11,617 nt of DNA from a virus (taxonomy: Duplodnaviria > Heunggongvirae > Uroviricota > Caudoviricetes). Under the pieces are notes generated by a model, which saw only the letters and a list, made by a program, of their open reading frames with translations, made no database searches and was not told the origin of the DNA. A program made the position numbers and the translations under genes. The DNA lies in IMG/VR virus record IMGVR_UViG_2622736468_000004; one strand, 5' to 3'. Below are positions 1-11,617 of this stretch, one piece after another (positions within the stretch are counted from its first letter, which is position 1; each line of letters opens with the position of its first letter).

Positions 1-113
1 ATGATCCCGTTACCTTCCGGGACCAAAATTTGGCTGGTTGCCGGTATCACCGATATGAGAAATGGCTTCAACGGCCTGGCTGCGAAAGTACAAACGGCGC
101 TGAAAGACGATCC
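1..113 (+). pseudogene. 5' fragment (about 38 codons) of a second IS66-family tnpB/orfB copy, cut off at the insertion point of the complete IS66 element
   Basis: Bases 1-113 translate to [38 protein letters not shown], near-identical to the N-terminus of the complete orfB at 1739-2086 (minus). Nucleotide differences (e.g. ttaccttcc here vs ttatcttcc in the full copy) show it is a distinct copy. The frame ends at taa 115-117, supplied by the IS terminus. Confidence 0.7.
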
Positions 114-150: not shown

Positions 151-1689
151 TTATTCAGTCGGCAGTGCTACGCGCCAGGGGAGCAGTTCGCCGACCCGGT
201 TTATCGGCCAGTCGGCTATGACGTCAAGGACATAGCGGAGGTAGCTTTCTGGCTCCACTCCGTTCAGTTTGCACGTCCCGATCAGGCTGTACAGCAGCGC
301 TCCCCGCTCTCCTCCATGATCCGAACCGAAGAACAGGTAGTTTTTGCGGCCCAGACTGACCATCCGCAACGCATTTTCAGCGATGTTATTGTCCGCCTCA
401 GCCCAGCCATCATCTGCATAGTACGTCAGCGCCGGCCACTGGTTCAGGGCGTATGCGAACGCTTTCGCCAGTTCTGAGTGTCGCGACAGGGTTTTCATCT
501 TTTCACGCAGCCAGCTTTCCAGGGATTTCAGCAGCGGTTTCGTTTTCAACTGACGTTCGGCAAGGCGCTGTTCCGCCGTCATTCCCCTTATCTCTGCCTC
601 GATGGCGTACAGTTCGCCGATCCGTTTCAGCGCTTCCTCCGTCAGGGCTGACGGGGTGCGAACGTGCACATCGTGGATTTTACGGCGGGCGTGAGCCCAA
701 CAGGCGGCTTCCGTTATCCGGCCATCCCGGTACAGCTCGTTGAACCCGGCGTATGCATCCGCCTGCAGTACACCACTGAACCCCGCAAGATGGGTCTGCG
801 GATGGATGCCTTTTCTGTCCGGGCTGTAAGCGAACCACACCGCCGGCGCCAGCGTTGACCCGGCGTTACGGTCGTCACGAACATACGCCCACAACCGCCC
901 GGTCTTCGTTTTCTTATTGCCTGGCAACAGCACCGGGACAGGCGTGTCATCAACATGGAGCTTACCGTCAGTCAGCACATAGCCATGAAGCGCCTCTTCC
1001 AGCGGAGACAGCAGCCGGCAGCATGCATCCACCCAGCCCGACAGCAGTGAACGGCTCAGCTCCACACCTTGCCGGCCGTATATTTCTGACTGGCGATACA
1101 GCGGGGTGTGCTCTGCATACTTCGAGGTCAGCACGCGGGCCAGCAGCCCCGGTCCGGCGATACCCCGCTCGATGGGCCGCGAAGGTGCAGGTGCCTGCAC
1201 GATGGCATCGCACTGAGTACAGGCATGTTTTTCCCGTACCGTCCGGATAACCCGGAAGGCGCTACGCATCAACTCCAGCTGTTCGGCGGTATCCTCGCCC
1301 AGATAACTCAGTGAACCGCCGCAGTTCGGGCAGCACGGCGCCGCAGGCAACAGTCGCTTTTCGTCACGGGGTAGTGATTCAGGGAACGGCTTACGGGTGC
1401 GGGTCTGACGCAACGGACGCTGTACTGCCGGGTCATACACCCTACCAGTCAGCGTATCGCTCTCTTTCTGAAGCCGGTTCAGATCGGCTTCCATTTGTGC
1501 GATACGGCGGGAGACTTTTTCGGAACGACTGCCGAAGTTCATCCGGCGGAGTTTATCCAGCTGCGCCTGCAGATGGTCTATTTCGCGCTCCCGGTTGCTC
1601 AGCTTTTCCTGCAGGGCGTGGATCAGCGATTCCTGTTCGGCCAGGCGCTGTTTCAGCAGGAAGATGTCGTCAGAAGAGATGTCGTTCAT
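151..1689 (-). CDS. tnpC: IS66-family transposase TnpC (orfC), 512 aa
   Basis: Long minus-strand ORF with ATG start at 1687-1689. Has an N-terminal coiled-coil/leucine-rich region, a CxxC...CxxC zinc-ribbon (CCPNCGG...CTQCD) and a DDE-type core characteristic of IS66 TnpC. Sits between the IS66 IRs downstream of orfB. Confidence 0.9.
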
Positions 1690-1738: not shown

Positions 1739-2086
1739 TTACAGCATGGTCAGGGAGGTCAGCAGCCGCTTAGGCTGTCGCCAGTCGATACCTTCCAGCA
1801 GCATCGCCAGCTGCGCCTGTGTAAGGAACACTTTGCCATCACGGGCTGACGGCCAGGCGAAGCGCCCACGCTCCAGCCGTTTGGTCAGGAGGCACAGTCC
1901 GTCACCGGTGGACCACAGCAGTTTAACCTGACTGCCGCTGCGGCCCCGGAAAATGAAAACATGGCCGGACATGGGATCGTCTTTCAGCGCCGTCTGTACT
2001 TTCGCAGCCAGGCCGTTGAAGCCATTTCTCATATCGGTGATACCGGCAACCAGCCAAATTTTGGTCCCGGAAGATAACGGGATCAT
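1739..2086 (-). CDS. tnpB: IS66-family accessory protein TnpB (orfB), 115 aa
   Basis: [33 protein letters not shown]... with ATG at 2084-2086; its start overlaps the orfA stop (ATGA-type overlap at 2083-2086), the typical IS66 orfA/orfB arrangement. Confidence 0.9.
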
Positions 2087-3674: not shown

Positions 3675-3922
3675 TATAATAAACTTACTTTTTTATCATT
3701 TTTCCACTTTAACAACATTTTGCTCCACTTTTCCACGACCAAACAACTTGAAATCTGGTTAAAATAACACGCAACACTATTCTTCTTCCTTGAGTCCGCC
3801 CGGAACTCGAAAAACAAACCGAGTTAAAGCCATTTTTCACAAAATCGATTTTGGGTCTCACCAAAATTACGGGGTTGCATACGCATTCGTTTATTTTCGA
3901 ACGTGTAGGTAATGACTCCAAC

Positions 3923-4426
3923 TTATTGATAGTGTTTTATGTTCAGATAATGCCCGATGACTTTGTCATGCAGCTCCACCGATTTTGAGAACGACAGCGA
4001 CTTCCGTCCCAGCCGTGCCAGGTGCTGTCTCAGATTCAGGTTATGCCGCTCAATTCGCTGCGTATATCGCTTGCTGATTACGTGCAGCTTTCCCTTCAGG
4101 CGGGATTCATACAGCGGCCAGCCATCCGTCATCCATATCACCACGTCAAAGGGTGACAGCAGGCTCATAAGACACCCCAGCGTCGCCAGAGTGCGTTCAC
4201 CGAATACGTGCGCAACAACCGTCTTCCGGAGCCTGTCATACGCGTAAAACAGCCAGCGCTGGCGCGATTTAGCCCCGACATAGCCCCACTGTTCGTCCAT
4301 TTCCGCGCAGACGATGACGTCACTGCCCGGCTGTATGCGCGAGGTTACCGACTGCGGCCTGAGTTTTTTAAGTGACGTAAAATCGTGTTGAGGCCAACGC
4401 CCATAATGCGGGCTGTTGCCCGGCAT
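3923..4426 (-). CDS. insB: IS1 InsB reading frame (expressed as an InsAB' fusion by -1 frameshifting)
   Basis: [53 protein letters not shown]... is canonical IS1 InsB. It overlaps insA in the -1 frame. Confidence 0.9.
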
Positions 4427-4620
4427 CCAACGCCATTCATGGCCATATCAATGATTTTCTGGTGCGTACCGGGTTGAGAAGCGGTGTAAGTGAACTGCAG
4501 TTGCCATGTTTTACGGCAGTGAGAGCAGAGATAGCGCTGATGTCCGGCGGTGCTTTTGCCGTTACGCACCACCCCGTCAGTAGCTGAACAGGAGGGACAG
4601 CTGATAGAAACAGAAGCCAC
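4345..4620 (-). CDS. insA: IS1 InsA (transposition inhibitor / N-terminal part of the InsAB' transposase), 91 aa
   Basis: [42 protein letters not shown]... is the classic IS1 InsA with a CxxC...CxxC zinc finger. Confidence 0.95.
4363..4369 (-). other. IS1 programmed -1 ribosomal frameshift site (A6C slippery heptamer) between insA and insB
   Basis: Plus-strand gtttttt at 4363-4369 is AAAAAAC on the coding strand, inside the insA/insB overlap. Confidence 0.8.
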
Positions 4621-4653
4621 TGGAGCACCTCAAAAACACCATCATACACTAAA

Positions 4654-5565
4654 TCAGTAAGTTGGCAGCATCACCCGACTTTCGAATACGGAATCATTTG
4701 TCACCCCCATTGATATGCAGGGTGTCTTCTTCCTGTATTTTTCGTGAAGGATTTTTACTGCAGCGTTGTTCCAGGTGACCTGATGGTGAATGCGTTTATG
4801 GCTGGCACCCATCAGTGAGATTTTTACGCACGACGGCGCATACATGACGGAGTAAAAACTTTTAACGTAGGTTCCGGAATCCAGATACAGCTCGGTCATT
4901 CCGCCGCTGTTTTTCTGCGTCTGTTTCTGCCCTAACTGGACAGCACCGATCGTCATAAACAATTCACCACAGCGGCCGAGATTCGTGTACGTATTCACAT
5001 CCTCGTTAATGCGCCCCATGAATGAGAACGGTCGATCAACCGAACAGATAAAGCTGTTCATTGCCTTGCGTTTCACCCACGAAGCATGGCCGCCATTGTC
5101 ACCAAGAAAATCCCCGCCCTGCGACATAGCGATGGAAAGAGCAGGTATTGATTCGTAGTACGCCAGCATTTCAGAAAGGATCGCATCCAGTTTCCTTATC
5201 GGAAAATAGGCCTGGTCATAGTTGCGATCCACCCGAAACTGGAACTCGTGATAATCATCATCGAGCTGAATGAAGTATTTACACCCGACCAGTTTTGCCT
5301 GGTCGAAACAGGCATTACGGGCGTAAAAAATTGAGCGGCGGTCACAGAAATTATCGGCTTCGTCAAAACGACTGGCGATATCGGCTTTGGAAAACACCAG
5401 CACCTGTTCACCAAATTCAGCCATGTACTGATGCCGTGTCTTATCTTCATCATCAACAACGATAAAAATTTTCCCGGTATAGCCAGCACGACGCAACGTC
5501 CGGTAAGTCAGAACTTTGTCCGGTCGCCCGTGAGTCAGAATAAAGGCGCAAAAATCATCACGCAT
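4654..5565 (-). CDS. Uncharacterised protein with a GT-A-like signature (tentative), translationally coupled to the upstream ParB-like gene; 3' end disrupted by IS1
   Basis: ORF 4654-5586; the favoured start is ATG 5563-5565 (MRDDFCAFILTHGRPDKV...), directly preceded by GAGGAGGAGG and overlapping the ParB-like stop (ATGCGTGA). The N-terminus has a beta-strand/THGRPD/...IFIVVDDEDKT layout and a later IQLDDDY, resembling nucleotide-sugar transferase DxD motifs. The last 6-7 codons and the stop (4654-4675) lie in IS1 sequence, so the native C-terminus is lost. Confidence 0.55.
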   Translation of the reverse strand: MRDDFCAFILTHGRPDKVLTYRTLRRAGYTGKIFIVVDDEDKTRHQYMAEFGEQVLVFSKADIASRFDEADNFCDRRSIFYARNACFDQAKLVGCKYFIQLDDDYHEFQFRVDRNYDQAYFPIRKLDAILSEMLAYYESIPALSIAMSQGGDFLGDNGGHASWVKRKAMNSFICSVDRPFSFMGRINEDVNTYTNLGRCGELFMTIGAVQLGQKQTQKNSGGMTELYLDSGTYVKSFYSVMYAPSCVKISLMGASHKRIHHQVTWNNAAVKILHEKYRKKTPCISMGVTNDSVFESRVMLPTY

Positions 5566-6349
5566 ATTCCTCCTCCTCACCACCATGCATGATCTCCACC
5601 ATGCGCTGCGTCATCCGGACAAATCCATTTTCAATAGCCTGCTGATAATCAATGATCACCAGCGCCGACTCCTCGAAAAAACACTGAATTTCAGCGGGGG
5701 CGTGAGCGTAATAGTCCGCAATTCTGCTGAAATTAAACACCGTGTGACGTTCTGCCGCACACAGGAGGAATTTCTCAATATCAGGCTCAAGGGACGCCGA
5801 ACGTATCCGGCTGATCAGCTCCTGAGTTTTCGTATCGTCGTACAGTTCACTGATATCCGGTTTACCGCCCGACGGCTCATAAACAGGCGTATCAATTTTC
5901 GTCGTATACGGCTCCTCCTCATTTCCTGTACCGGGCAAAACATCCGTCAACAGTTCATCAATTTCTGTCGGGATGAAGCCTGTCAGGGAGACATCAAAAT
6001 CAGCATTGATTAGGTCCGACAGCTCCATCCGCAACAGATCTTCATCCCAGCCAGCATTCATCGGCAGGCGATTATCTGCCAGGCGGTACGCCTTTTTCTG
6101 CTCATCCGTCAGGCCAGACAGAACAATGACCGGAACAGAATCCATTTTGAGCATTTCAGCCGCCATAACACGACTGTGACCCGCAATAATTTCGCCCTTT
6201 TCGTCAATCAGCACCGGATTAGTCCAGCCGAATTGCTTAATACTTTCTACCAGTTGTGCCACCTGCTCAGTACTGTGCGTCCTGGCGTTGTGCGCATACG
6301 GTGACAATTCTTGTAATGGGCGATAGACTATCTTTAATTTCTCGCTCAT
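5558..6349 (-). CDS. ParB-like nuclease-domain (ParB/sulfiredoxin fold) protein, 263 aa, acidic C-terminal tail
   Basis: ATG at 6347-6349 with AAGG upstream. The N-terminal region (PLQELSPYAHNARTHS...VLIDEKGEIIAGHSRVMAAEML) matches the ParB N-terminal domain, with an A-G-x-x-R-x-x-A-A box corresponding to the ParB GERRxRAA motif. The C-terminus ends in a GGEEEEYA acidic tail. Confidence 0.75.
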   Translation of the reverse strand: MSEKLKIVYRPLQELSPYAHNARTHSTEQVAQLVESIKQFGWTNPVLIDEKGEIIAGHSRVMAAEMLKMDSVPVIVLSGLTDEQKKAYRLADNRLPMNAGWDEDLLRMELSDLINADFDVSLTGFIPTEIDELLTDVLPGTGNEEEPYTTKIDTPVYEPSGGKPDISELYDDTKTQELISRIRSASLEPDIEKFLLCAAERHTVFNFSRIADYYAHAPAEIQCFFEESALVIIDYQQAIENGFVRMTQRMVEIMHGGEEEEYA

Positions 6350-6376
6350 ACAGCCTTGCTTTATGAATAAAACGCA

Positions 6377-6400
6377 CCCCAGCAGCCAGTGCTACTGGGG
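6377..6400 (-). terminator. Candidate terminator hairpin downstream of trkG (minus strand)
   Basis: Minus-strand RNA CCCCAGUAG-cacugg-CUGCUGGGG (9-bp stem with one G-U) followed after 4 nt by UUUUAUU. The non-adjacent U-tract makes it only moderate. Confidence 0.3.
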
Positions 6401-6486
6401 ACGGAGGTGTTGCTGGTAAAGTTAGGTATTGGATCAATGAGTGAGTCAACATAATATTAAACTCACAATTATAAATCAGCCATATA

Positions 6487-7944
6487 TTAGGAGCGCCAAA
6501 AAAAACCTGAAAACAATATAATAACAGGATAAATTTCAAGGCGACCAAGAATCATAGCTATGCACATTAAACATTTTGCAATGTCATTAAGCACTCCGAA
6601 TGACGATGCAGTAGCCCCAAAACCTAATCCCATATTATTAATACATGCAGCCACTGTTGCAAATGATGTAAGAAAATCATATCCCATACCATTTAACACC
6701 AGTATAAAAAACACCGTGAAGAGAGTATAAAGAAAAAAGAAACTCCATACAGACCTCATTACACGATCTGTAACTATCTTCCCTCCTACATTTACACTCA
6801 ACAACGCTCTGGGATGAGAAAGCTGATTTATCTCGTGTTTGCTTTGTTTGAAAAGTATAAGAAATCGAAGTGACTTAATTCCACCACAAGTTGAACCTAT
6901 ACATCCCCCAAAGAAACTTGACAACAGCAAAAACACTATCGTGTGCGTGGGCCAACTTGCATAATCCTGCGTAGCTAAACCATTATCAGTGAGCATGGAG
7001 CTGGCAAGAAAAAACGAATGAATAAAACTTCCATGCAAGTCATACATACCTATATGCCAGACCTGGAAAGAGGTAACAATGATCACCCCTAAGGCTATTA
7101 ACAGAAAGAAACGAAGTTCAATATCTCTGATTAAAGGTTTTATCGTTTTCCTGCTAATAACAATATACCAAAGAGTGAAGTTGAAAGCCGATAGCAGGGA
7201 AAAAGAACCAGCCACCAGCTCAACCAAATAGTTATTAAAATATCCGATACTCTCGCTATGAGTTGAGAAACCACCAAGCGAAACTGTGGAAATCCCGTGA
7301 CAAATAGCATCAAACAAAGGCATTCCTGCAAGTCTATAACAGACAATACAAGCAATACCTAATAAAGAATAAGTTATCCACAGTGTCCGTGACGTATCGG
7401 CCAGGCGGGGAGTGAGTTTGTCATCCTTAAATGGCCCCGGCATTTCTGACTGATAAAGCTTTGCACCACCAATACCCAATAATGGCAATACAGCAACCGC
7501 CAGAACAATAACTCCTAAACCACCTATAAAATTTAACTGTGACCGATAGTACAAATATGCCCGAGGTAATGAACTAACATCATCAATTACAGTTGCTCCT
7601 GTTGTTGTTATTCCAGAAACCCCTTCAAACAGAGCATCAATGAACGTTAAATTAAGTTCTGAGTCAATCCATAAAGGGAATGCACTAATAACAGAAAACA
7701 AAATCCAAAACATTACAATTATAATAAACCCATCACGGGTACGTAATTGAATGCCAGATTTCTTAGTTGTATACCACGCTCCGCCACCAATGCAAAAAAA
7801 TATAACGAAAGTTATAAAGAAAACGAACAGGCTTTTTTCTTTATAAAACAATGCTACAACCATTGGTGGCAACATTGAAAGACTATAGAGCCAAACCAGG
7901 AACCCACACATATGAGTAACAACTCTTACATGAGATGTATTCAT
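6487..7944 (-). CDS. trkG: TrkH/TrkG-family potassium uptake membrane protein (prophage-borne TrkG), 485 aa
   Basis: Polytopic membrane protein with repeated pore-loop motifs (e.g. GITTTGATV, GGFST, NGLATQD, GLGFGAT). From memory, the sequence beginning MNTSHVRVVTHMCGFLVWLYSLSMLPP corresponds to Rac-prophage TrkG of E. coli. The ORF track starts at a TTG (7962, with AAGGTGG upstream); the ATG at 7942-7944 gives the 485-aa form. Markedly AT-rich relative to its neighbours. Confidence 0.8.
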   Translation of the reverse strand: MNTSHVRVVTHMCGFLVWLYSLSMLPPMVVALFYKEKSLFVFFITFVIFFCIGGGAWYTTKKSGIQLRTRDGFIIIVMFWILFSVISAFPLWIDSELNLTFIDALFEGVSGITTTGATVIDDVSSLPRAYLYYRSQLNFIGGLGVIVLAVAVLPLLGIGGAKLYQSEMPGPFKDDKLTPRLADTSRTLWITYSLLGIACIVCYRLAGMPLFDAICHGISTVSLGGFSTHSESIGYFNNYLVELVAGSFSLLSAFNFTLWYIVISRKTIKPLIRDIELRFFLLIALGVIIVTSFQVWHIGMYDLHGSFIHSFFLASSMLTDNGLATQDYASWPTHTIVFLLLSSFFGGCIGSTCGGIKSLRFLILFKQSKHEINQLSHPRALLSVNVGGKIVTDRVMRSVWSFFFLYTLFTVFFILVLNGMGYDFLTSFATVAACINNMGLGFGATASSFGVLNDIAKCLMCIAMILGRLEIYPVIILFSGFFWRS

Positions 7945-8081
7945 ATCTAAATATTCTTTCAATTATAACCACCTTGCTGCAATATTATGATTATACTGTA
8001 TAAAATTTAACTCCTCTTAGATCTTACTTCACTGTTCCTTATGAAACAATCATCAAAATGAATCATATTGTAGTTAAGATT

Positions 8082-8546
8082 TTACTTTAAACACTGCTCG
8101 GTTATGTATTGCTGAGCACCTTCAAGTTGGGCCTGCATCATTACCAGTCGTTCCCGGAGGGTGAAATAATCCCGTTCAGCGGTGTCTGCCAGTCGGGGGG
8201 AGGCTGCATTATCCACGCCGGAGGCGGTGGTGGCTTCCCGCACTGACTGACAGACTGCTTTGATGTGCAACCGACGACGACCAGCGGCAACATCATCACG
8301 CAGAGCATCATTTTCAGCTTTCGCATCAGCTAACTCCTTCGTGTATTTTGCATCGAGCGCAGCAATATCACGCTGACGCATCTGCATGTCAGTAATTGCC
8401 GCGTTCGCCAGCTTCAGTTCTCTGGCATTTTTGTCGCGCTGGGCTTTGTAGGTAATGGCGTTATCACGGTAATGATTAACAGCCCATGACAGGCAGACGA
8501 TGATGCAGATAACCAGAGCGGAGATAATCGCGGTTACTCTGTTCAT
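8082..8546 (-). CDS. Rz: Rz i-spanin (inner-membrane spanin subunit)
   Basis: [60 protein letters not shown]... closely resembles lambda Rz as I recall it. The ATG at 8544-8546 overlaps the endolysin stop (ATGA). Has an N-terminal TM helix followed by a coiled-coil. Confidence 0.9.
8141..8326 (-). CDS. Rz1: Rz1 o-spanin lipoprotein, wholly embedded in Rz in the +1 frame
   Basis: [52 protein letters not shown]... has a lipobox (VVGC) and a proline-rich mature region; ATG at 8324-8326. The embedded architecture is the hallmark of lambda-type spanins. Confidence 0.85.
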
Positions 8547-9040
8547 TGCTGACCCCACAAACAGATTTCACGCTCAATCTCACGACGAGTCATGAGACCT
8601 TTCCATTGCTTACCGCCAGCATATGTCCAGCGACGTAGCTGATCACATGCGCCTTTGATATCGCCCTGGTTTATTTTGCGAAGAAGCGTCGATGTTCTGA
8701 AATTGCCAGCACCCACGTTGTAAACGAATGAGTAAAGAGCGCCGCGCGTTGTTTCCGGTATATCGACTTTGATGTACGGGTTAATTTGTCTGGCGACAGT
8801 GGCAAGGTCTTTATTCAAGAGTGTTTTGCATTCTGCTTTGGTATACGTTTTACCGAGCATGATGTCTTTTCCTGTATGCCCGTGACATACAGTCCATACA
8901 CCAACAATATCTTTGTATGGTATGTAGCTGACACCTTCCAGACCATCGTTACCACTTGGGCCAGTGATTAACACTGATGCTATAGCAATTGCTCCGCCAC
9001 CAATAGCAGCAGCAACGACTTTTCGTAATGATGGAGGCAT
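8543..9040 (-). CDS. R: SAR endolysin (phage-21 R-type, T4-lysozyme/GH24 fold), 165 aa
   Basis: The N-terminal Gly/Ala-rich weakly hydrophobic SAR domain ([21 protein letters not shown]) is followed by the catalytic triad E-x8-D-x5-T ([16 protein letters not shown]). The ATG at 9038-9040 overlaps the holin stop. Confidence 0.9.
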
Positions 9041-9255
9041 TATTCACCTCTCGCAGCCTTGCGCTTATCTTCTTTAATCTTGAAATAAAGGTTTGTCAGG
9101 TACGTCAGCAGGCCAAATACCAGACTACCCAGCACACCGATTGCAGCCCACTGTGACGGAGTTACTCTATCGAGCAACTGTAAAAACCAGTAGCCAGCAC
9201 TGCCTGCGGAGGTGCCGTAGGCAATGCCTGTTGAAATTTTGTCCATGGATTTCAT
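9040..9255 (-). CDS. S: Pinholin (phage-21 S21-type class II holin) with dual-start motif MKSM, 71 aa
   Basis: [71 protein letters not shown] has two TM domains and Met1/Met4 dual starts (antiholin/holin). GGAGGTGA Shine-Dalgarno upstream of ATG 9253-9255. The ORF track's longer 90-aa form (start 9312) lacks comparable support. Confidence 0.85.
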
Positions 9256-9289
9256 AGCCTCACCTCCGCACGGAACGGATGGCATAGTT

Positions 9290-9317
9290 ATTATGTGTAG
9301 GCTTTCAGACACATCAA
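9290..9317 (-). promoter_or_regulatory. Candidate sigma70-type promoter immediately upstream of the holin (minus strand)
   Basis: On the minus strand: TTGATG (-35; plus coordinates 9312-9317), a 16-bp spacer, then CATAAT (-10; plus coordinates 9290-9295), about 35 nt upstream of the S start codon. Hexamer match only. Confidence 0.25.
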
Positions 9318-9356
9318 TCAGAGCCTTAATTGATATATATGCTGGAGACGATGCAA

Positions 9357-9381
9357 TATAAAAAGCTCGCCGTAGCGAGCT
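9357..9381 (-). terminator. Rho-independent terminator (minus strand) between the TolA-like lipoprotein gene and the lysis cassette
   Basis: Minus-strand RNA AGCUCGC-uacg-GCGAGCU (perfect 7-bp GC-rich stem, tetraloop) immediately followed by UUUUUAUA. Confidence 0.55.
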
Positions 9382-9506
9382 AATAAAATGTATTTCTCTG
9401 ATATTATGTTTATTTGTATTAGCTCAGACTTGACATCACAGGTTTCGTATATAGAACATCATCAAATCTGTCAGTTTGCTATGAATGAGATATAGTAATT
9501 GAAGAG

Positions 9507-9902
9507 CTAACCTCGCATGTCAAAGCCAGATTTCTGAAAATCTCTGTAGACTTCCGGATTGTTGAAGGCCGGAAATTTGGCTTTATGAGCTGCGGACTTT
9601 ATCGCTTCGCAATAGGCTTTATCACCGTTACTGGTAGATATTTTTAACGCCGTGCCATCCTGAGAGAATTCCATATGCAACCTGCATTTTTTCCCTTTCC
9701 AGTTATGCGGCTCATCAAGTTTGGCATTAATTGCAGCTCTGATTCCCCGCGCTTGCGCCCCCCATTCATCCTGATCATCCCAGCGTCCTGAACTGCAACT
9801 ACCTGTAGCAGTAGTTTTGTGGCAATCTGAAGGGTGTAAAGGTGTGCATCCCGCAACAAAACCGACCCAAAAAGTCAACATAACGATTTTCTTTAATCCC
9901 AC
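9507..9902 (-). CDS. Prophage lipoprotein with a TolA C-terminal (domain III)-like domain, 131 aa
   Basis: GTG start at 9900-9902 preceded by GAGGAG (an in-frame ATG lies at 9879-9881). Signal peptide with lipobox (FVAGC). The C-terminal ~80 aa (KKCRLHMEFSQDGTALKISTSNGDKAYCEAIKSAAHKAKFPAFNNPEVYRDFQ) follow the TolA domain III pattern as I recall it (TCTLRIKLAPDGMLLDIKPEGGDPALCQAALAAAKLAKIPKPPSQAVYEVFK). Confidence 0.7.
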   Translation of the reverse strand: MGLKKIVMLTFWVGFVAGCTPLHPSDCHKTTATGSCSSGRWDDQDEWGAQARGIRAAINAKLDEPHNWKGKKCRLHMEFSQDGTALKISTSNGDKAYCEAIKSAAHKAKFPAFNNPEVYRDFQKSGFDMRG

Positions 9903-10053
9903 TTCTTGCTCCTCAATCCATTAAAATCTCAGCAATAGTAGTTGTTACGTCCGCCACTGGCTCAGAGCTGACTATCCGCTAAATTTAGCTCAGTGCCGTA
10001 GCTGTGTCAGAACAAACCTAAGCCGAAACCGTTTATTACAAAACAATAAATAT

Positions 10054-10225
10054 CAGGGTTTAAAATCCAGCACCCCATTTTGAAATACTTTATATACTTC
10101 CGGCGAAGGGGGGGCAGGTATATCAGCATTCTTTATCGCATTCATCGCTTCACGACATAAATCGAGGTCTCCACTTTCTCTTTTAACCTCCAGTAGAAGG
10201 CCATTCGGGGCCATATGCATTCTCA
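10054..10225 (-). pseudogene. 3' fragment (C-terminal 56 codons) of a second TolA-C-like gene, 5'-truncated by IS1
   Basis: Manual minus-strand translation of 10225 to 10054 gives ...RMHMAPNGLLLEVKRESGDLDLCREAMNAIKNADIPAPPSPEVYKVFQNGVLDFKP*, which matches the TolA domain III C-terminus pattern (...PLDFKP). The frame is open up to the IS1 boundary at 10226. Not in the ORF track. Confidence 0.6.
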
Positions 10226-10280
10226 GGTGATGCTGCCAACTTACTGATTTAGTGTATGATGGTGTTTTTGAGGTGCTCCA

Positions 10281-10556
10281 GTGGCTTCTGTTTCTATCAG
10301 CTGTCCCTCCTGTTCAGCTACTGACGGGGTGGTGCGTAACGGCAAAAGCACCGCCGGACATCAGCGCTATCTCTGCTCTCACTGCCGTAAAACATGGCAA
10401 CTGCAGTTCACTTACACCGCTTCTCAACCCGGTACGCACCAGAAAATCATTGATATGGCCATGAATGGCGTTGGATGCCGGGCAACAGCCCGCATTATGG
10501 GCGTTGGCCTCAACACGATTTTACGTCACTTAAAAAACTCAGGCCGCAGTCGGTAA
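10281..10556 (+). CDS. insA: IS1 InsA
   Basis: Identical 91-aa InsA sequence to the other copy. Confidence 0.95.
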
Positions 10557-10978
10557 CCTCGCGCATACAGCCGGGCAGTGACGTCATCGTCTGCGCGGAA
10601 ATGGACGAACAGTGGGGCTATGTCGGGGCTAAATCGCGCCAGCGCTGGCTGTTTTACGCGTATGACAGGCTCCGGAAGACGGTTGTTGCGCACGTATTCG
10701 GTGAACGCACTATGGCGACGCTGGGGTGTCTTATGAGCCTGCTGTCACCCTTTGACGTGGTGATATGGATGACGGATGGCTGGCCGCTGTATGAATCCCG
10801 CCTGAAGGGAAAGCTGCACGTAATCAGCAAGCGATATACGCAGCGAATTGAGCGGCATAACCTGAATCTGAGACAGCACCTGGCACGGCTGGGACGGAAG
10901 TCGCTGTCGTTCTCAAAATCGGTGGAGCTGCATGACAAAGTCATCGGGCATTATCTGAACATAAAACACTATCAATAA
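10475..10978 (+). CDS. insB: IS1 InsB reading frame (InsAB' via -1 frameshift)
   Basis: Canonical InsB sequence; the A6C slippery site lies at 10532-10538. Confidence 0.9.
10532..10538 (+). other. IS1 programmed -1 frameshift heptamer AAAAAAC
   Basis: ttaaaaaactc, within the insA/insB overlap. Confidence 0.8.
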
Positions 10979-10993
10979 GTTGGAGTCATTACC

Positions 10994-11617
10994 ACAGAAT
11001 TCAATGCATTAATGGAAAGTGAAAAAGGACAGAGCCAGAACTTGTGGAAATTTGCCGTTTACTCAGGACTTCGTCACGGGGAACTGGCAGCTCTGGCGTG
11101 GGAGGATGTGGATCTCGAAAAGGGAATAGTGAATGTCAGAAGAAACCTGACGATACTTGATATGTTCGGTCCCCCAAAAACAAATGCCGGGATCCGAACA
11201 GTAACACTACTGCAGCCTGCTCTTGAAGCACTGAAGGAGCAATACAAACTGACCGGGCATCATCGCAAAAGCGAAATCACCTTTTATCATCGGGAGTACG
11301 GCAGAACCGAAAAGCAAAAACTGCATTTTGTTTTCATGCCCAGGGTGTGTAACGGAAAACAAAAACCTTATTACTCGGTAAGCAGTTTGGGGGCAAGGTG
11401 GAATGCAGCAGTAAAACGTGCTGGTATTCGCCGCCGTAATCCGTACCATACGCGACATACTTTTGCCTGCTGGCTGTTGACGGCAGGAGCGAACCCGGCA
11501 TTTATAGCCAGCCAAATGGGGCATGAAACTGCGCAGATGGTGTATGAAATTTACGGTATGTGGATTGATGACATGAACGACGAACAGATAGCCATGTTGA
11601 ATGCGCGGTTATCGTAG
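10994..11617 (+). pseudogene. C-terminal catalytic fragment of a tyrosine recombinase (phage integrase family), N-terminus removed by IS1
   Basis: The frame is open from the IS1 boundary (TEFNALMESEKGQ...) to the stop at 11615-11617. Contains catalytic-domain signatures: ...NAGIRTVTL..., HTRHTFACWLL (H-x-x-R), GHETAQM, and the terminal tyrosine region VYEIYGMW. The N-terminal DNA-binding/core-binding domains are absent. Confidence 0.8.

Follow-up and report, generated by a model that had tools for sequence, protein, structure and literature searches.

A TolA domain III gene cut to its 3' end at an IS1 copy in a Rac-type prophage of Escherichia coli, and its intact relatives

In the 11,617-nucleotide stretch of viral DNA analysed here (Caudoviricetes; IMG/VR virus record IMGVR_UViG_2622736468_000004, hereafter the window), the minus strand beside the right-hand of two IS1 copies carries a short frame related to the C-terminal domain III of the envelope protein TolA (TolA-III). 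We are almost certain that this segment is the dead 3' remnant of a gene, here called TolA2, of which it preserves the last 57 of 142 codons, that the gene comes from Rac-type and mEp460-type lambdoid prophages of Escherichia coli, and that it was broken by an IS1-associated deletion. The remnant itself is a sequence feature already known, as it is a copy of a catalogued and annotated gene. The complete explanation, which joins the identity and history of the remnant to a decoy function of the intact proteins, is considered very likely, the decoy function being by itself a tentative proposal.

The remnant and its IS1 junction

Translation of the minus strand over 10053..10225 gives 57 native sense codons and then a TGA stop at 10053-10055, the product being LRMHMAPNGLLLEVKRESGDLDLCREAMNAIKNADIPAPPSPEVYKVFQNGVLDFKP. 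The frame runs uninterrupted across the junction into IS1, and over 10053..10280 it reads as a single open frame in which residues encoded by IS1 and ending in SWQHH lead directly into the native sequence and its stop. A clean TolA-C-like frame on this strand, open into the IS1 end at 10226 and deprived of its 5' part, had been announced by an original prediction made from the DNA alone, and translation across the junction bears it out; the 56 codons counted from 10054 are in fact 57 from 10053, a trivial difference. The frame had also been described as absent from the list of open reading frames (ORFs). This holds for the full frame, but the mechanical list does contain the part that begins at an internal ATG at 10220, a 55-codon ORF at 10053..10220.

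The 58-residue remnant peptide matches the Pfam family TolA_C (PF06519) with 46.2 bits, against a gathering cutoff of 25 bits (E=5.4e-12; profile positions 41-96 of 96), and it matches the E. coli TolA-III chains 1S62, 3QDP, 2X9A and 1TOL with E-values of about 5e-15 and 32 identities over 57 residues. With such values, the similarity to TolA lies far beyond chance. The shortness of the fragment (57 codons) and the label 'tolA, missing N-terminus' that the locus receives from the Prokaryotic Genome Annotation Pipeline (PGAP) might suggest that the frame is open by chance, or that part of host tolA was captured recently and no distinct phage gene is involved, yet these readings deserve almost no credence. 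They are refuted by E-values from 1e-12 to 1e-15, by the identity to E. coli TolA, which is only 56-60%, by the existence of complete 142-residue alleles which have their own lipoprotein signal peptide and are under purifying selection, and by the context, which is a prophage and not tolQRAB-pal; the PGAP label is itself explained by an artefact of the TIGR02794 cutoff, described below.

Compared with the full-length gene, the window retains residues 86-142 of TolA2, and the 5' 255 bp are gone. The promoter region, the signal peptide, the lipidation Cys20, the tether, the long first helix and Cys84 have been lost with them. In the AlphaFold2 (AF2) model of the full-length protein, the cut falls within strand beta1 (residues 84-90) and the fragment retains partial beta1 through beta3 only, a portion which includes both LLEVKR and LDFKP, the segments corresponding to the ligand-binding strands of TolA. 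The remnant is unable to yield a working protein, since it has neither its own promoter, nor an export signal, a lipidation site or the first helix, and keeps one cysteine of two. The internal ATG at 10220 weighs against so strict a verdict, as it leaves a 55-codon ORF and some translation of the remnant is formally possible. One may thus imagine that the remnant is still expressed and useful, either as a 55-residue product starting at this ATG or as a fusion out of IS1: no stop codon interrupts the frame between IS1 and the native stop, both ligand-binding strands are retained, and the DNA has not decayed in comparison with intact copies. We regard this as very improbable. A product devoid of signal peptide would be cytoplasmic and kept apart from every known TolA-III ligand; helix 54-72, the start of beta1 and Cys84 are missing; no in-frame start codon is present within IS1 upstream of the junction (the ORF list starts at 10220), and no evident ribosome-binding site precedes 10220. 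That the DNA has not decayed is accounted for by a deletion of recent date, as only 19 differences in 5.5 kb separate this region from E. coli ECCHD184 (locus L001).

The history of the junction can be read by comparison with this strain. Window positions 4673..10226 are collinear with the ECCHD184 Rac-type prophage (L001 1374..6927) at 99.66% identity, and the identity ends exactly at both IS1 ends; BLAST alignments to L001 and to Escherichia phage mEp460_ev081 (L002) both stop at 10226. The right-hand IS1 is complete, with intact InsA (10281..10556) and InsB' (10475..10978) frames and the usual inverted ends (GGTGATGCTGCC...GGAGTCATTACC), starting at 10226 as GGTGATGCTGCCAACTTACTGAT... and finishing at 10993 as ...AAGTTGGAGTCATTACC. 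It is 99.7% identical to the left-hand copy, which is inverted with respect to it. Its flanks, gcattctca and acagaattc, form no direct repeat, and none of the four 9-bp IS1 flanks match as a target-site duplication, either directly or when swapped between the copies. Beyond the right-hand IS1 the sequence continues as intR, the Rac integrase gene, of which the 3' half is present; an annotated intR or tyrosine recombinase gene adjoins IS1 in E. coli genomes, and in locus L011 intR is followed by ttcA, the Rac integration site (PMC6379469). To the left of the left-hand IS1, annotation matches identify the ydfK/ynaM end of Rac. This copy replaces the last 13 codons of a gene for a TET-associated glycosyltransferase-like (TAGT) protein, window position 4673 being equivalent to L001 1374 while the gene ends there at 1334.

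Because the 5' half of the gene is absent, the far side of the element is the 3' half of intR and no target duplication is found, the truncation is attributed to an IS1-associated deletion and not to a simple insertion. The expression 'beheaded by IS1' used in the original prediction is therefore correct in that the gene is cut at the IS1 end, but not in the sense of an element inserted in place. In intact Rac-type prophages, the genes on either side of the right-hand IS1 are separated by early-region genes (Q, recET and others). The simplest history would be two IS1-associated deletions in a Rac-type prophage: 1) one would have extended from codon 85 of TolA2 through Q and the replication, immunity and recombination region to the middle of intR, and 2) the other would have taken away the end of the TAGT-like gene and the structural genes, as far as the ydfK/ynaM end.

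A simple IS1 insertion, in which the missing 5' half would follow directly after the element and precise excision could restore the gene, would fit the clean abutment of the IS1 end on coding sequence, and IS1 is indeed found near the TolA2 gene repeatedly and independently in other E. coli strains. The sequence beyond IS1, however, belongs to intR (its 3' half), on the opposite strand to TolA2, the missing 255 bp are nowhere in the window, and the 9-bp flanks differ even after a swap. Simple insertion is thereby refuted within the window unless an assembly error has joined two IS1 copies, and its probability is minimal. An inversion between the two IS1 copies was likewise rejected as the origin of the junctions: gene order and orientation relative to intR and ydfK/ynaM match an intact Rac-type prophage, and a flank swap yields no target duplications either. 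The orientation of trkG and of the lysis genes with respect to intR agrees with the K-12 Rac map, so that an inversion is unneeded.

The exact IS1/TolA2 junction is contiguous in no complete E. coli genome; the five hits that cover it are made of two pieces 200-400 bp apart, and thus represent other IS1 positions. A scan for the exact 38-mer junction across one genome per species returned no match. Strain 504838 (H45) was discarded as a carrier of the same junction, as IS1 truncates the other gene there.

The intact gene, its product and its annotation

Of 5426 complete E. coli genomes, 1294 contain the region of window positions 9300..10225 according to a megablast search, and 778 contain both TolA-like genes, at a query cover of at least 80% and mostly with at least 99% identity. 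Among 50,697 phage records, only that of Escherichia phage mEp460_ev081 matched. Over these positions the window is identical to L001 and differs from L002 at two sites, both outside the remnant. In both loci the frame extends upstream to an ATG, giving a 142-residue protein which begins with MGFRSASILTLIISGIIIGC, continues as TDAVSTNYHDRTSYYSDKAIETQYVSSSERTSDVSEDIRLYAHQIKSAIEKQFGDASKYSGKECTLRMHMAPNG and ends in LDFKP. The search of related prophages for the uninterrupted two-gene arrangement, suggested in the original prediction, has thus recovered the full gene.

Inspection of the TolA2 sequence points to a signal peptide with a basic n-region, a hydrophobic core and the lipobox IIGC, with Thr at +2. 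This predicted lipobox, which agrees with the pattern [LVI][ASTVI][GAS]C and has no Asp at +2, is lost in the window fragment. In lipoproteins, the residue that follows the lipobox cysteine decides outer-membrane sorting (the +2 rule), and owing to Thr at this position intact TolA2 is predicted to be sent to the outer membrane. Between the signal peptide (residues 1-20) and the domain stretches a disordered tether of about 35 residues, residues 21-53 being disordered. Consistently with this organization, the AF2 model of a full-length relative has a predicted local distance difference test score (pLDDT) below 50 over residues 1-51 and of about 90 over residues 54-142. Its helices (H) and strands (E) follow the order H54-72, H76-79, E84-90, E96-104, H106-118, H127-133 and E135-140. 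Superposition with Foldseek on the TolA-III of 2X9A chain B gives a root-mean-square deviation of 0.7 A over 88 columns and a target-normalised template modelling (TM) score of 0.95, and the search against 3QDP an E-value of 7.7e-12; the full-length relative is thus modelled with the TolA domain III fold.

The relationship is equally clear at the residue level. The alignment of TolA2 residues 55-142 with E. coli TolA 334-421 is free of gaps (E=5e-28; 52 of 86 positions in the local alignment, 60% identity). Cys84 and Cys109, which are kept in every allele, are aligned with the cysteine pair of E. coli TolA-III; the edge strand LLEVKR corresponds to TolA 375-LLDIKP-380, and LDFKP is identical to TolA 417-421. 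Alleles 64-99% identical to the first sequence all retain the start, the lipobox cysteine and both domain cysteines, and all the full-length ones match PF06519. Between two alleles, the ratio of nonsynonymous to synonymous substitution rates (dN/dS) amounts to 0.36 for the whole gene, 0.25 for the domain and 0.18 for the 57 codons still present in the window, and in this pair the value for the domain indicates purifying selection on the intact gene. A further allele, P0023, is a mosaic, its N-terminal 80 residues being of the P0026 type and its C-terminal 60 identical to the window type; the switch near GKECTLRMHM points to recombination within the gene.

The original prediction was mistaken in calling the gene unannotated. 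The locus is annotated by RefSeq/PGAP in hundreds of E. coli genomes, in most of them as 'tolA: cell envelope integrity protein TolA, incomplete, missing N-terminus' (L001 6754..7182) and in some as a second 'TolA C-terminal domain-containing protein'; the phage record has 'TolA protein', and the viral family PHROG 5772 ('unknown function') matches both window proteins end to end (E=1.6e-62 and 6.7e-65). The label of an incomplete gene is an artefact. Domain III alone passes the cutoff of TIGR02794 (tolA_full), with 75.6 bits for a threshold of 59.45, yet covers only model positions 265-362 of 362, so that an N-terminus is deemed missing. Conservation of the start, the lipobox cysteine and the domain cysteines, the low dN/dS and the end-to-end match to PHROG 5772 all argue against a pseudogene. 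The intact protein is not a TolA either. Neither the 142-residue protein nor the window fragment has the domain I transmembrane anchor or the long helical domain II of TolA; the equivalog model NF007065 gives 107.8 bits, short of its cutoff of 213; and, in the prophages and the phage, the gene is found not in a tolQ-tolR-tolA-tolB-pal context but with the Q antiterminator and tRNAs upstream and holin, lysozyme and Rz genes downstream. These features show the intact protein to be, by prediction from its sequence, an exported TolA domain III deprived of the anchor and of the helical domain that couple TolA to TolQR, its lipidation being likewise predicted.

The two-gene cassette, its relatives and a proposed function

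Downstream of the remnant lies a second, intact gene, TolA1 (Table 1), the DNA of which is identical to L001. It encodes MGLKKIVMLTFWVGFVAGC, followed by TPLH and the remainder of the protein, with the lipobox VAGC and Thr next to it, and matches PF06519 with 54.6 bits (E=1.3e-14) and TolA in the PDB with E=5e-9. Its start is probably the GTG at 9902, which has GAGGAG 7 nt upstream and agrees with a homologue on plasmid pO157. PGAP places the start at an internal ATG (124 residues), which cuts off the basic n-region of the signal peptide. As the original prediction had it, the truncated gene is nearer to the C-terminus of TolA than its intact neighbour, the identities to E. coli TolA being 56% for the window fragment and 60% for the full-length TolA2 domain versus 34% for TolA1. 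TolA1 is 28% identical to TolA2 and 32% to the window fragment, and has ALKIST and FDMRG at the ligand positions.

A second TolA-III gene does lie in tandem, but the diversification of tandem paralogs that the original prediction read into this arrangement is weakly supported, as the two are only 28% identical and either can be found elsewhere without the other; a recent tandem duplication was rejected on these same grounds. A TolA2-type allele of 66% identity, P0028, sits without TolA1 between the Q antiterminator and the holin gene of other lambdoid prophages, and a TolA1-type gene stands alone on pO157. Given this divergence and separate occurrence, TolA1 and TolA2 look like independently mobile modules and not like a local duplication. 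The products of the two genes may differ in ligand specificity.

In the prophages and the phage examined, the cassette occupies the slot after the Q antiterminator and tRNAs and before holin-lysozyme-Rz. In L002, tRNA-Arg(TCT) (6331..6407) and tRNA-Met(CAT) (6508..6583) lie between the Q antiterminator and TolA2, in the lambdoid accessory slot, a region which is deleted in the window. Just upstream of the intact TolA2 gene, pattern matching finds a promoter-like TTGAGC-18-TATAAT (10/12), and the weaker site listed in Table 1 could be a TolA1 promoter which survived the deletion. A moron, or autonomous accessory cassette, would have its own promoter and terminator, be set between conserved phage modules and be scattered among related phages; here the promoter-like site and the terminator-like hairpin are pattern matches only, and the distribution is patchy (1 of 50,697 phage records versus 778 of 5426 E. 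coli genomes).

Table 1. Coordinates of the features discussed, in window positions
Feature	Position	Strand	Basis and remarks
Left-hand IS1, inverted	3908..4675	-	Self-BLAST; second deletion junction
TAGT-like glycosyltransferase gene (TET-associated)	4654..5586	-	PF20691, E=1e-34
Lysis cassette downstream of the TolA-like genes	8082..9312	-	Pfam Phage_holin_2_1, Phage_lysozyme, Phage_lysis
Rz	8082..8558	-	Pfam; PGAP 'lysis protein' in L001
Lysozyme	8543..9040	-	Pfam; PGAP rrrD in L001
P21-type holin ORF	9040..9312	-	Pfam; PGAP essD in L001
Terminator-like hairpin and T-run, TolA1 to holin gene	9364..9381	-	Consensus scan, pattern match only
TolA1, intact 131-residue lipoprotein gene (predicted), diverged TolA domain III	9507..9902	-	Translation, Pfam, PDB
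Weak sigma-70-like site CTGACA-17-TAAATT, 9/12	9982..10010	-	Consensus scan, pattern match only
TolA2 3' remnant (codons 86-142 and stop, of 142)	10053..10225	-	Translation, Pfam, PDB, DNA identity, residue mapping
Right-hand IS1, 768 bp	10226..10993	+	Sequence ends, ORFs, self-BLAST; deletion junction
Rac integrase intR, 3' half, joined to IS1	10994..11617	+	Pfam Phage_integrase E=5e-23; E. coli annotations

Elsewhere in the window, the TAGT gene is directly downstream of, and overlaps, a ynaK-like gene with a ParB_N domain (5558..6349, minus strand), and the window shows no TET/JBP gene. Between the Rz gene and ynaK lies trkG, a potassium transporter gene (6487..7962, minus strand), a placement shared with K-12 Rac; the holin, lysozyme and both TolA-like genes are still present upstream of it, which is not known to be the case in K-12. 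At its left end, the window opens inside a second, inverted partial copy beside an IS66-family element (tnpC 151..1689 and tnpB 1739..2086, both minus strand): positions 1..113 and 1974..2086 form a 113-bp inverted duplicate of 98% identity, corresponding to the 5' part of the tnpB region.

Relatives of these proteins are found well beyond the lambdoid prophages. A HMMER search of 1.84 billion representatives retrieved 316 proteins at E<=1e-3. Among the representatives of 105-170 residues, 42 of 67 have a lipobox within the first 50 residues, none with Asp at +2, and several other short ones have ordinary signal peptides; small TolA-III proteins with predicted export signals are thus a broad class. 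The Klebsiella pneumoniae plasmid p1_090045 (L003; 10,060 bp, ColRNAI cloacin type) carries at 3687..4420, beside cloacin, immunity and lysis genes, an overlapping gene pair which encodes a TolA-III lipoprotein and then a signal-peptide-bearing TonB C-terminal domain. The lipoprotein has the lipobox LTAC with Lys next to it, is 49% identical to TolA and 39% to TolA2, and has LDFRP at its C-terminus. As deduced from their domains, the two putative products reproduce between them the tip of each of the two envelope import machines. Matches to TolA-III occur in 660 Klebsiella plasmid records, the TonB pairing having been examined in L003, and Klebsiella plasmid TolA/TonB genes have been mentioned in passing (PMC10269471). 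Similarly, pO157 of E. coli strain 155 (L004 4815..5246) encodes a TolA1 homologue of 88% identity, located in the leading region of this F-type plasmid, downstream of psiB, psiA and hok; this homologue accounts for roughly 525 plasmid matches at 80-90% DNA identity.

TolA-III binds its partners by beta-strand addition. The colicin A site is beta2, for which the 375-LLDIKP-380 box is required, and g3p-N1, colicin N and the TolB N-terminus bind beta3, where the backbone amides of D418 and K420 are critical (PMC4339652, PMC7391070). On this basis, we tentatively propose that the intact proteins may be outer-membrane-tethered TolA-III decoys for colicin, filamentous-phage g3p or TolB ligands. The lipid anchor and the tether of about 35 residues would hold TolA-III under the outer membrane, uncoupled from the TolQR motor, where it would meet colicin translocation domains and g3p before host TolA, and capture without energy input would result in tolerance. 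Alternatively, the tethered domain would titrate the TolB N-terminus and alter outer-membrane integrity. Exported TolAIII is reportedly also a source of tolerance to group A colicins and Ff phage, as Levengood-Freyermuth is said to have found in 1993. Several findings speak for a decoy, namely the conservation in TolA2 of both ligand-binding strands, the bacteriocin-operon neighbourhood on plasmids, the pairing with TonB, the promoter- and terminator-like signals around the prophage cassette, the close TolA1 homologue in the pO157 leading region and the leakiness caused in E. coli by an exported TolAIII (PMC6195910). Going one step further, and with a little less confidence, one may suppose a natural class of decoys, present on prophages, in the leading region of an F-type plasmid and on bacteriocin plasmids and including TonB C-terminal domains, which would protect the carrier against Tol-dependent colicins or pilus-specific filamentous phages, tandem genes covering different ligands.

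A number of observations weigh against the decoy proposal. Strand conservation is no proof of ligand binding, as beta-strand addition depends little on side chains, and the promoter and terminator are consensus matches only. No family of the PADLOC-DB 2.0 defence models matches either protein at E<=0.1, PHROG 5772 is listed as of 'unknown function', and no experimental study of any family member was found in the searchable literature. A distant member, P0058, is found in an ordinary chromosomal context which is not obviously mobile, so that the family cannot be regarded purely as a weapon of mobile elements. Finally, the cassette stands in the late operon directly before the lysis genes, and a TolA-related gene of CP-933O, annotated as tail fiber, rises 32-fold on ciprofloxacin induction (PMC11125564); a role in lysis or release agrees with both at least as well as one in the lysogen.

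The last two points lead to another explanation, in which the intact proteins would be lysis or release accessories: a late burst of TolA-III would titrate TolB, loosen the Tol-Pal link and leave a leaky or vesiculating outer membrane, the remnant being dead regardless. The location of the cassette between Q/tRNAs and holin in every prophage context seen is in its favour, and this Q-to-holin slot is the position of stx in Stx phages. So are the induction of the CP-933O gene and the binding of TolB to the beta3 strand which is conserved in TolA2 (PMC7391070). In addition, exported TolAIII with a signal sequence is used as a means to render E. coli leaky for periplasmic proteins, in a report the reference list of which names Levengood-Freyermuth 1993 and Wan & Baneyx 1998 (PMC6195910). 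Against a lysis accessory, the sigma-70-like promoter and the terminator-like hairpin around the cassette suggest an expression independent of the late operon, homologues also reside in non-lytic settings, namely on cloacin plasmids, in the leading region of pO157 and at a chromosomal site, for which a part in lysis would hardly be meaningful, and the spanin Rz/Rz1 already handles the outer membrane. We judge this role unlikely, and the probability left by the decoy proposal and by the lysis accessory falls to something else.

Comparison with known systems

By itself, the remnant is of little importance, being a commonplace scar left by IS1 deletion in a Rac prophage that is decaying. About one complete E. 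coli genome in seven carries the predicted TolA-tip lipoprotein, usually under the wrong label of a defective tolA, and it recurs on pO157 and on Klebsiella bacteriocin plasmids; correcting the annotation of an intact gene called a pseudogene is actionable at once. If these proteins are decoys, they would alter the response of strains to colicin-based and filamentous-phage-based tools and provide a natural case of a mobile element which copies a host import hub to block competitors. Should the whole class prove real, it would constitute an unrecognised determinant of superinfection exclusion or bacteriocin tolerance.

The closest known system is TolA-III of E. coli itself (residues ~334-421; 1S62, 3QDP/3QDR, 1TOL, 2X9A), with which TolA2 shares the fold, 60% identity, the cysteine pair, an identical LDFKP and a nearly identical colicin A box. 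In contrast to E. coli TolA, which has the domain I anchor and the helical domain II and is encoded in the tol-pal operon, TolA2 has a lipoprotein signal peptide and a short tether and is encoded in a prophage late region. Deprived of domains I and II, TolA2 cannot be energised by TolQR. A second counterpart is the engineered periplasmic TolAIII, which is in principle, like intact TolA2, an exported, motor-uncoupled TolA domain III and makes cells leaky (PMC6195910). Unlike this construct, TolA2 occurs naturally, has diverged from the TolA of the host and has a predicted lipid anchor in the outer membrane.

PHROG 5772 holds both window genes, which it matches end to end, but is a catalogue entry only. 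The lambdoid lipoprotein Bor and the exclusion protein Cor are small envelope accessory ('moron') proteins involved in lysogenic conversion or superinfection exclusion. The TolA cassette, with promoter-like and terminator-like signals on its flanks, may be comparable; in contrast to Bor and Cor, with which it has no sequence relationship, TolA2 copies a part of a host machine and occupies the slot between Q and holin. The proteins of the Klebsiella cloacin plasmid and of pO157 share with TolA2 the succession of lipobox, short linker and TolA domain III. They differ from it in being plasmid-borne, and the Klebsiella protein is paired with a TonB domain and not with a second TolA domain.

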